A DNA stretch of 64,000 bases from Escherichia coli (GTDB taxonomy: Bacteria > Pseudomonadota > Gammaproteobacteria > Enterobacterales > Enterobacteriaceae). Below are positions 23,822 through 27,135 of the stretch, piece by piece. The notes beneath the pieces are model-generated. The model saw nothing but the letters and a program-made list of their open reading frames with translations, was not told the origin of the DNA and made no database searches. The stretch's first letter is position 1; each line of letters begins with the position of its first letter. The position numbers and the translations under genes were made by a program. The stretch is taken from assembly GCF_003334405.1 (NCBI RefSeq), contig NZ_QOWM01000001.1; one strand, given 5' to 3'.

Positions 23822-24721
23822 TTAACGCAATAATGGACAATCTGGTGGTAATCGACAACGCAACGCCGCCGGAAGTATTTCAATATGAAAGTTTTGTCCG
23901 CTCAACGGTTCGCCATCAAGATTAAAAGTGATTTCGTGTGGGGCTTGTATATCAAACCACGACGAAGCGCCTTCGATAATATTCGGGTTATCTTCGTCAG
24001 ATTTTAAGGTTGATACGAGAGCCGGAAGAATTTCATCGCCGGTAAAAATGCGCAGTTGCAGCAAGCCATCGTTAATTAACGCGTTCGGACACAATTGCTG
24101 ACCGCCACCGGCCTGACGCCCGTTACCAATACCAATGACCAGGGCGTCACCTTGCCAGTGAAAGTTTTCACCGCGGATTTCACAACGGTCCGGTTGCAGA
24201 GTATCCATGCGCATTAAGCCATGAATGATGTAAGAGACGCCACCCAGCGCGGCTTTTAATTTTTCCGGCGTTTCTGTGGTAATACGCGTCCCAAATCCGC
24301 CTGTCGCCATATTAATAAAACAGGTTTGTTTGTTGACCTGCGCCATATCTATCGCAATGGCGTTACCGGCAATTGCCAGTTTCAGCGCCTTATCCAGTGC
24401 CTCAGGAATCCCTACACTGGTGGCAAAATCATTGGCGGTTCCTAATGGCAAAATTCCCAGCGCGGGTATGCCATCCCCCTCACACTGAATCAACGCTGTA
24501 GAAACTTCATTAATGGTGCCATCGCCACCACCGGCAATCACCGTTGCGACGTCCAACTTCCGGGCCTCCTCTACATATCGTGCGGCATCGCCTTTCTCCC
24601 AGGTGACCCGCACATGGATCGTCATTCCTTCCTCACGCAACAGCATAATTGCTTCGCGCAAGGGTAGATTGTCAGTACTTTTGCCATTAAGAATCAGTAA
24701 GCTGGCGGGAAATTCTGCCAT
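23822..24721 (-). CDS. yegS: lipid kinase YegS (DAGK catalytic-domain family)
   Basis: 299 aa [32 protein letters not shown]...; GGDGT motif. Confidence 0.93.
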
Positions 24722-25126
24722 GATCGTATGTGCCTTTATGATTGGTCTGTAGATAGTGTAGAGCAGAAAACAAAAGGTGGAGTCAGAACAGGATGAAAGT
24801 CGGAGGATAAAAAGTCAGTTCAAGTATGGAGGATTCAGTGGTTACCACCAGGAGCTTGCAATGGGGACAGCGAATACTAACGGCTGCCACCGATAAATTT
24901 CAAAAAAGAGCATATACCTAATATTCAACTAAACAGTGGCATCTTCAATATAATATATTAAAGCCCCCATGGAGTTACCCTGAAGGGCCTCAATGTCCGT
25001 AATTCCTACTTATGTAGGAAATGTTGTACAGAACATTTATTATAATCCTATTCAATTATAATAATCATGCCATTATTATATTTAAACACTAGAGAGTGTC
25101 GTTGGTATTTAATGGGGGAAGGTGAG

Positions 25127-25444
25127 ATGAAAAAGATAGCTGCTATATCATTAATTAGTATTTTTCTTATATCTGGTTGTGCTGTGCATAATGATGAAAC
25201 AAGTATCGGTAAATTTGGTCTTGCATATAAAAGTAATATTCAGCGTAAACTCGATAACCAATACTACACCGAAGCCGAAGCTTCTTTAGCCAGGGGTAGA
25301 ATATCTGGTGCAGAAAATATAGTAAAAAATGATGCAGCCCATTTCTGTGTTACTCAGGGCAAAAAAATGCAGATAGTTGACCTGAAGACAGAAGGTGCAG
25401 GATTACATGGCGTCGCTCGTCTGACATTCAAATGTGGAGAGTGA
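25127..25444 (+). CDS. yegR: small lipoprotein YegR
   Basis: ORF 25067..25444; probable start MKKIAAISLISIFLISGCAV with lipobox (LISGC); 105 aa. Confidence 0.8.
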   Translation: MKKIAAISLISIFLISGCAVHNDETSIGKFGLAYKSNIQRKLDNQYYTEAEASLARGRISGAENIVKNDAAHFCVTQGKKMQIVDLKTEGAGLHGVARLTFKCGE

Positions 25445-25601
25445 GAATATTTTTTGGTAAGCATCAAACATGCGCGTTCTGGTTGTGCTTAGCCGGAACC
25501 TGTGCGAGCACGATGCCGTTACGTGAAAGGCATCGTGCTATGAAGGGAGATTCTATCGATGTGGTCAATGGAAGACGGTGACCAGGGATAGGGCTTATGC
25601 A

Positions 25602-25628
25602 TAAAAAATAAGCCCGTGTAAGGGAGAT
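25602..25628. other. 27 bp sequence matching the phage P2 attachment core (unoccupied attB)
   Basis: aaaaaataagcccgtgtaagggagatt overlaps the 3' end of cyaR; no P2-derived genes (ogrK/yegZ) between cyaR and yegR. Confidence 0.6.
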
Positions 25629-25688
25629 TACACAGGCTAAGGAGGTGGTTCCTGGTACAGCTAGCATTTTATGGGTTATGTTTTTCAG
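25602..25688 (-). ncRNA. cyaR: CRP-activated Hfq-dependent sRNA CyaR (RyeE)
   Basis: Reverse complement reads GCTGAAAAACATAACCCATAAAATGCTAGCTGTACCAGGAACCACCTCCTTAGCCTGTGTAATCTCCCTTACACGGGCTTATTTTTT, matching the CyaR sequence, ending in a terminator hairpin and U-run; TGTGA half-site about 40 bp upstream of the 5' end. Confidence 0.9.
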
Positions 25689-25773
25689 CGAAACGGATGA
25701 TAACCTTAATAAATGCAGCTGTATGTGATCGGTTTCTAAGAATTTTCCATCCGGGAAAAATAATCGAAATTAA

Positions 25774-27135
25774 TCACTTACCGTGGGGATTACGCGTGGT
25801 TTCCCCGGAGAAATTACGCATCAGCAGCGCGTAATTGAGCTCAAGATCCTGCGGGACCGGGAGCCACACAGTATAACCATCGCCTGGTGCTATCGGCATA
25901 GCTTCGCCTTTGGCGTTTTCCATGTGCTCAAGGGTAAAATTAATGTTGCCTTGCGGCGTCATCAGCTCAAGGCTGTCGCCAACGGAGAATTTATTTTTCA
26001 CCGCTACCGCCGCGAGGTCCCCCTTGCGCTCACCGGTAAACTCACCAACAAACTGCTGGCGGTCAGAAACTGAATAACCGTATTCGTAGTTCTGATAATC
26101 GTCGTGAGTATGACGACGCAGGAAACCTTCGGTATAGCCACGATGCGCCAGACCTTCCAGAGTTTCCAGCAGGCTGGTATCGAACGGTTTTCCCGCAGCG
26201 GCGTCATCGATAGCTTTGCGGTAAACCTGTGCGGTGCGTGCACAATAGTAGAAAGATTTGGTACGACCTTCGATTTTCAGCGAATGCACGCCCATTTTGG
26301 TCAGGCGTTCTACATGGGCGATGGCGCGCAGATCTTTCGAGTTCATGATGTAAGTGCCGTGCTCATCTTCAAACGCGGTCATATACTCGCCCGGACGCTG
26401 GGCCTCTTCGATCATAAACACTTTGTCGGTTGGTGCGCCGATACCCAGCGTCGGCTCAACATTTTGCACCGGAATCGGCTCGTACTTGTGTACGATGTTG
26501 CCAACATCATCTTCTTTCCCTTCCTGGACGTTGTACTCCCAGCGGCAGGCGTTGGTGCAGGTGCCCTGGTTCGGGTCGCGCTTGTTGATATAGCCAGAGA
26601 GCAGGCAGCGACCGGAGTAGGCCATGCACAGCGCGCCGTGAACGAAGATCTCGATCTCCATATCCGGCACCTGATTGCGGATCTCTTCAATCTCTTCCAG
26701 CGACAGCTCGCGAGAGAGGATCACGCGGGTCAGGCCCATTTGCTGCCAGAATTTCACCGTCGCCCAGTTCACGGCGTTAGCCTGCACCGAAAGGTGGATC
26801 GGCATTTCAGGGAAGTGCTCACGCACCAGCATAATCAGCCCTGGATCGGACATAATCAGCGCATCCGGCCCCATTTCCACCACCGGTTTCAGGTCACGGA
26901 TAAAGGTTTTCAGCTTGGCGTTGTGCGGTGCAATGTTGACCACGACATAAAACTTTTTCCCCAGCGCGTGGGCTTCATTGATGCCGAGCTGAAGATTTTC
27001 GTGGTTGAATTCGTTGTTGCGCACACGCAGGGAATAACGCGGCTGGCCCGCATAAACAGCATCTGCGCCATAAGCGAAAGCGTAACGCATATTTTTCAGT
27101 GTTCCCGCCGGGGAAAGGAGTTCCGGTTTAAACAT
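25774..27135 (-). CDS. trhP: peptidase U32-family protein (YegQ/TrhP, tRNA U34 hydroxylation factor)
   Basis: 453 aa MFKPELLSPAGTLKNMRYAFAYGADAVYAGQPRYSLRVRNNEF... Confidence 0.92.
   Translation of the reverse strand: MFKPELLSPAGTLKNMRYAFAYGADAVYAGQPRYSLRVRNNEFNHENLQLGINEAHALGKKFYVVVNIAPHNAKLKTFIRDLKPVVEMGPDALIMSDPGLIMLVREHFPEMPIHLSVQANAVNWATVKFWQQMGLTRVILSRELSLEEIEEIRNQVPDMEIEIFVHGALCMAYSGRCLLSGYINKRDPNQGTCTNACRWEYNVQEGKEDDVGNIVHKYEPIPVQNVEPTLGIGAPTDKVFMIEEAQRPGEYMTAFEDEHGTYIMNSKDLRAIAHVERLTKMGVHSLKIEGRTKSFYYCARTAQVYRKAIDDAAAGKPFDTSLLETLEGLAHRGYTEGFLRRHTHDDYQNYEYGYSVSDRQQFVGEFTGERKGDLAAVAVKNKFSVGDSLELMTPQGNINFTLEHMENAKGEAMPIAPGDGYTVWLPVPQDLELNYALLMRNFSGETTRNPHGK

Follow-up and report, generated by a model that had tools for sequence, protein, structure and literature searches.

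An empty P2-family attachment site at the terminator of the sRNA gene cyaR in Escherichia coli, and a possible relic of an older insertion beside it

Introduction

Several phages and genomic islands insert into the 3′ ends of tRNA, tmRNA and sRNA genes, e.g., phage 186 in tRNA-Ile, Fels-2 and SopE-phi in ssrA, or Salmonella phages at ryeB/sdsR. In these systems, the attP core duplicates the terminal hairpin of the target and the gene is rebuilt upon integration, while remnants of integrated elements accumulate beside the site. The locus described in this study shares these traits, but differs from the tRNA-like targets of such integrators in that its target is the terminator of an Hfq-dependent sRNA and in that the core is short (27 nt).

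For phage P2, the site at the end of cyaR (ryeE) is presumably the preferred “locI-type” site of E. coli C. Barreiro and Haggard-Ljungquist reportedly found in 1992 that locI is the preferred site of P2, that its core is identical to attP and that the K-12 remnant lies at that very site. The genome paper of E. coli W lists “cyaR RNA” as an insertion site, which is occupied by Wphi2 (P2 type) in W, by ogr-D′ in K-12 and by P2*B in strain B and is vacant in Crooks (PMC3032704), and Bobay et al. refer to E. coli ryeE as “previously known to be targeted by phages” (PMC3603311).

Here, we analyzed the surroundings of cyaR in a 64-kb stretch of E. coli DNA (the window), for which an initial annotation made from the letters alone had proposed an unoccupied P2 attachment core. 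The site agrees with the described P2 attB at cyaR/ryeE in its core, which equals attP, and in its position at the cyaR terminator, with yegR and yegQ as neighbors; P2-type prophages occupy the identical junction in other strains, and we found nothing essential that sets the site apart.

Results

The gene order in the window is gat operon, yegS (23822..24721, minus strand), yegR (plus strand), cyaR and yegQ/trhP (25774..27135, minus strand). The latter, taken from the list of open reading frames and the annotation, is the conserved gene upstream of cyaR on the B′ side, while the equally conserved yegS marks the B side, and its upstream region adjoins the core in sister species. Between yegR and cyaR, the 27-mer AAAAAATAAGCCCGTGTAAGGGAGATT occupies positions 25603..25629 of the plus strand and is the only exact copy in the 64-kb window, where its chance expectation is 0 even with three mismatches allowed. 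A blastn search of a phage collection returned the same 27 bases at positions 24356–24382 of the P2 genome (AF063097), where the record annotates 24356–24382 as “attP” and 24356–24383 as the Int-binding “attP core.” The T preceding the core is common to P2 as well, giving 28 identical bases (25602–25629 of the window and 24355–24382 of AF063097). In P2, this core is flanked on one side by the IHF site, the P arm, a terminator and ogr, and on the other side by the Cox sites, the P′ arm and int. The proposal that the 27-mer is the P2 att core, which a mismatch with the published sequence would have refuted, hence stands with 27 of 27 bases in agreement, only its placement at 25602–25628 being one base off. 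Likewise, the distance between yegR and cyaR given before as about 155 bp compares well with the 158 bp we measured from the end of the yegR stop codon (25444) to the core.

The sRNA gene itself (25606..25691, minus strand) matches the Rfam family RF00112 over model positions 1–85 of 85 with 100.7 bits, compared to a gathering score of 47 (E = 1e-19). Its intrinsic terminator (25601..25638, minus strand) consists of a hairpin at 25611–25638, for which RNA folding gave an 11-bp stem, and a U-tract at 25601–25610, and it is the sole terminator-like site that a terminator scan reported within 24700–25800. As already noticed in the initial annotation, core and CyaR terminator coincide: loop, 3′ stem arm and U-tract lie inside the 27-mer, and the 5′ stem arm (25630–25638) lies outside.

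What integration does to the sRNA gene can be read from occupied sites. Positions 25603–25680 are identical, base for base, in the K-12 remnant, in the junction record “Phage TP,” in strain elppa10 and in a contaminating contig of a metagenome-assembled genome (MAG), and all differences in these remnant and lysogen sequences are confined to the DNA beyond the U-tract. Consequently, cyaR is regenerated by integration; of the two outcomes considered before, a regenerated or an altered 3′ end, only the first one is observed.

To determine occupancy, junction-specific queries were run against 5,424 complete E. coli genomes. The contiguous 171-bp attB region as present in the window was found in 4,208 genomes (~78%), and 820 genomes (~15%) contain an attL junction with a P2-type P′ arm and int that ends exactly at 25629. 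A further 356 genomes (~7%) feature the K-12-type junction of B arm, left core and D′, a count agreeing with the difference of 4,563 minus 4,208. In strain SRY157, for example, similarity to the window ends precisely at position 25629. Beyond it lie the genes for an integrase (100% identical to P2 Int) and a C-type repressor, then cox and P2-type replication genes. The reciprocal attR junction, in which ogr and P arm are joined to cyaR, is present in K-12, the “Phage TP” record and strain elppa10, and the exact core occurs in more than 120 IMG/VR contigs among the matches listed. Based on the 820 attL junctions, the P2-identical integrase and the 4,208 contiguous sites, this locus is a live hotspot whose majority state is empty. 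The suggestion that the strain retains an intact P2-family integration hotspot, together with the expectation that P2-like prophages would be found at this coordinate in other genomes, is thereby borne out, although being empty is the common state of the site and no peculiarity of this strain.

It could be argued that the 27-mer is merely the conserved cyaR terminator, with the identity to P2 being incidental and the site unused in strains of this kind. Indeed, the hairpin and its loop AAUCUCCCUU are conserved in cyaR across the Enterobacterales, phage or no phage, and the exact 27-mer appears in only 3 of 120 species-representative loci among the matches listed. Such a coincidence is hardly credible, however, in view of 820 E. 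coli genomes in which a P2-type prophage is joined to this B arm at 25629, the integrase at one such junction being that of P2, and of the attP annotation of P2 itself, which spans these 27 bases. We therefore regard it as very probable that the feature is an ordinary, currently empty P2-family attB at the 3′ end of the CRP-dependent sRNA gene cyaR.

Comparison with K-12 MG1655 places its cryptic remnant at precisely this site. K-12 carries 630 extra bp in the interval, comprising a C-terminal fragment of gpD (D′, yegZ) and ogrK. Its sequence is colinear with window positions 25400–25620 through the first 18 nt of the core; D′, ogrK and the ogr terminator come next, and a P2 P arm and the IHF region precede the complete core that leads into cyaR. 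Since an 18-nt left core and a complete right core are both seen, attR is full in K-12 and its attL core is truncated. The two strains thus agree in locus and in the attR core joined to cyaR, and differ in the 630 bp between left and right core, which the window does not have: no ogrK and gpD fragment between a truncated core and an attR core was found there. Similarity to ogr, D and int was absent from the entire 64 kb, and searches of the window with Ogr and P2 Int (tblastn) and with the K-12 remnant DNA (blastn) yielded nothing except a 30-nt stretch resembling the P arm. The earlier view that K-12 contains ogrK and yegZ here and that this strain lacks them is confirmed, and the opposite scenario of a remnant located elsewhere and an interval identical in K-12 does not apply.

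The 30-nt stretch (25556..25585, plus strand) is located between yegR and the core. Its sequence TCGATGTGGTCAATGGAAGACGGTGACCAG agrees with the P arm of P2, which comprises the arm-type sites of Int (TCGATGTGGTCAATGTGTGGACGTGACCAG), at 27 of 31 aligned positions (87%), lies on the side of the core equivalent to that in attP and obtained a score that none of 1,000 dinucleotide shuffles reached. Compared with the published arm-type repeat consensus tgTGGaCa (PMC3448106), the first repeat, TGTGGTCA, is intact and the second one has degenerated. The spacer between this stretch and the core measures 17 nt instead of 33, i.e., it is 16 nt shorter. In the Escherichia lineage L036, which shares the left flank, the IHF spacer is P2-like and has kept its full length; this indicates that the E. 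coli stretch derives, by shortening, from a genuine P arm. Moreover, K-12 carries this stretch in addition to the P arm of its own remnant further to the right; with both P arms present in one genome, the stretch is older than the K-12 remnant and common to E. coli. Judged by this likeness, the DNA that separates yegR from cyaR is more than ordinary bacterial sequence and includes what looks like a decayed P2-type P arm.

Three nucleotides upstream of this stretch, the 10-mer AAGGGAGATT (25543..25552, plus strand) repeats the right end of the core. It occurs twice in the 64 kb, the other copy being inside the core, compared to 0.06 copies expected by chance. The initial annotation had rightly pointed to a partial copy of the core, although at about 25551–25560 instead of 25543–25552, and had left open whether it is a scar or a secondary site. 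P2 can use secondary sites that share only partial identity with the core, and an exact, non-random match of 10 nt to the right end of the core would be compatible with a functional secondary attB for P2-type integrases. Nevertheless, we consider this very improbable: the 27-nt frame ending at 25552 agrees with the core at only 15 of 27 bases (hand count), the 10-mer varies among strains (AAGGAGGATT in K-12), and every sampled lysogen junction breaks at 25629 and none at 25552, leaving the use of a secondary site without support. With a decayed P2-type P arm directly adjoining it, the partial copy is probably a scar, left over from a core copy in the history of the site.

Between yegR and this probable scar, a perfect 10-bp inverted repeat, GCACGATGCC-N11-GGCATCGTGC, can be read from the sequence at 25508..25538, which is kept, with substitutions, in K-12 and in JJ1887. 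It was considered as a yegR terminator and discarded, as a T-run is absent on both strands and the terminator scan made no call. Directly behind the yegR stop codon (window position 25449), the ST131 strain JJ1887 and a number of further genomes have an AT-rich insertion of about 170 bp, unrelated to the present matter and perhaps a MITE or another kind of remnant; it is absent here.

Outside E. coli, the site was surveyed by a lineage scan, in which one genome per species was screened with a cyaR terminator pattern, giving at least 120 loci. A P2-type P arm with its IHF flank adjoins the cyaR terminator in 10 of 120 species-representative loci among the matches listed, namely in five Citrobacter genomes, a Buttiauxella MAG, Enterobacter sp. 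Bisph1, E. albertii, the L036 lineage and a contaminating E. coli contig. The cyaR terminator hence serves as a landing site for the P2 family across several genera. The cores in these loci follow the terminator sequence of the respective host, e.g., AAAAAATAAGCCTGCGTAAGGGAGATT among the core variants of the Citrobacter, Buttiauxella and Enterobacter loci, which suggests that phage cores co-vary with the cyaR sequences of their hosts.

Two further records from these searches deserve mention. A MAG labelled Collinsella sp. contains a contig (JAIJJM010000051.1) in which E. coli cyaR is joined to a P2 attR with ogr terminator, P arm and the exact core, presumably a case of binning contamination. 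In Kluyvera ascorbata, the exact 27-nt P2 core is located at the cyaR terminator and about 830 bp separate yegS from cyaR, which could represent another small insertion at the site.

The scan also revealed that the DNA to the left of the core is not shared by all close relatives. In E. whittamii, Escherichia sp. E1V33 and a strain labelled “E. coli E69,” the latter probably belonging to another species as its yegS is only 87% identical, the upstream region of yegS joins the core directly. Similarity to the window runs up to 24813 and resumes at about 25603 (in E. whittamii up to 24802 and from 25599). Because the flanks adjoin at the core in these three sister lineages, the 789 bp at 24814..25602, the “yegR island,” constitute an insertion precisely at the left edge of the core. 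The island has a GC content of 0.29–0.39, compared to 0.50–0.59 in yegS and yegQ.

Its only gene is yegR (25127..25444, plus strand), which according to the RefSeq annotation and its translation encodes a predicted lipoprotein of 105 aa with a lipoprotein-type signal MKKIAAISLISIFLISGC at its start. The list of open reading frames gives a 125-aa form beginning with the ATG at 25067, and this longer form is also found in some database clusters. Homologues of YegR are almost confined to E. coli and Shigella, and the few distant ones reside in an Enterobacter island rich in IS elements or in a chromosomal context that is unrelated. The only strong family match, phrog_21109, covers YegR from end to end. 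A tblastn search of the phage collection gave only two records with YegR, both with host flank, and phrog_21109 is probably such flanking DNA included in predicted prophages. These searches therefore gave no evidence for yegR as a phage gene: its matches in the phage collection are records with host flank, and its distant homologues occur in contexts other than P2-like prophages.

A search of the phage collection with the B arm (25445–25602) gave two genuine matches only. In “Phage TP” (AY639599.1), yegR and yegQ flank an ogr-D′ remnant like that of K-12, and vB_EcoM-720R8 (ON470606.1) runs through gatR, yegS and yegR. With gatR, yegS, yegR and yegQ included as flanks, both records are prophage junctions rather than attP.

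At the left end of the island, the 27-mer AAAAAGTCAGTTCAAGTATGGAGGATT (24809..24835, plus strand) is identical to the core at 18 of 27 positions and is a candidate for a decayed core copy, i.e., an attL relic. The sequence that follows, to about 24905, can be aligned colinearly with the P′ side of attL of P2 and E. albertii. When the synteny break is used to set the register beforehand, agreement past a shared A-run amounts to 16 of 28 positions (binomial 5e-4), and the anchored score is equalled by only 20 of 127,946 window positions; in an unanchored local alignment, 17 of 1,000 shuffles reach the score, in line with a modest likeness. Between the same boundaries, E. albertii harbors a P2-type remnant of its own, 3.3 kb in length, whose attL is well preserved.

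From these observations, we lean toward reading the 789-bp island including yegR as the decayed remains of an ancient P2-type element, with today’s attB corresponding to its attR. The insertion is absent from relatives and ends at the core, and core repeats and arm sequences appear in attL/attR order, clearly at the right end and more weakly at the left, while residual phage genes or pseudogenes are missing inside the island, where neither Int nor Ogr similarity was detected.

Alternatively, the partial core copy and the P-arm-like stretch might not derive from an old integration, and yegR might have arrived by a route unrelated to P2. In that case, an ogr-type terminator whose descending stem and T-run have decayed, or chance, could account for the 10-mer. 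That the P2 sequence preceding the P arm agrees at 8 of 14 positions in this comparison (GAGGGGCTTTTTTG and GAAGGGAGATTCTA; hand count) would fit the terminator variant, and the island without any remaining phage gene as well as the IS-rich or unrelated surroundings of other YegR homologues speak for a separate origin of yegR. We regard an arrival of yegR independent of P2 as possible but doubtful, and a terminator or chance origin of the 10-mer as similarly tentative, because the likeness to the P arm is strong (equalled by no shuffle) and located on the correct side of the core, the island ends at the core edge on one side and, on the other, at a 27-mer that resembles the core and sits in the register expected from the synteny break, and E. 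albertii has a recognizable P2-type remnant between identical boundaries.

Discussion

The main finding of this study, an empty P2 site of the usual kind at cyaR, is correct but already known, as cyaR has been published as an insertion site of P2-type phages (PMC3032704; PMC3603311). The confirmation of this site is useful for annotation only, where it marks the landing place of a P2-type prophage and indicates that cyaR would survive such an integration intact.

Following established P2 biology, from which the chemistry is taken over, integration at this site could proceed as follows. The attP of the phage duplicates, over 27 nt, the loop, 3′ stem arm and U-tract of the cyaR terminator, and the P2 integrase, a tyrosine recombinase assisted by IHF, would exchange strands inside this identical stretch. 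The prophage would thereby end up between two copies of the core: attL would face yegR, with P′ and int next to it, and in attR, ogr and the P arm would precede the core that continues into the cyaR body. Because the core is identical, cyaR and its terminator are rebuilt exactly. Host factors or immunity could still block the integration of P2 in this particular strain.

If anything in our analysis is new, it is the support for reading the yegR interval as what remains of an older P2-type insertion. An ancient P2-type element integrating at the cyaR terminator after E. coli had split from its sister Escherichia lineages appears to us a rather likely course of events, and yegR would then be a gene left by, or captured within, this prophage. 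The island resembles grounded prophage remnants with orphan genes beside att sites in its low GC content and lineage specificity, and also in its layout, with a decayed core and P′-like sequence on the left and a P-arm-like stretch and an intact core on the right. It differs from them in that all phage genes are gone and the single gene yegR is without a genuine phage homologue.

Apart from annotation, the use of an sRNA terminator as a long-lived landing pad across genera is a side result of modest evolutionary interest. Reading the island as a relic would suggest where yegR, an orphan gene specific to E. coli, came from and would illustrate how the “bacterial” arm of an attB can arise through repeated rounds of integration and decay. 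If this reading is true, the canonical “empty” P2 site of E. coli would not be virgin chromosome.
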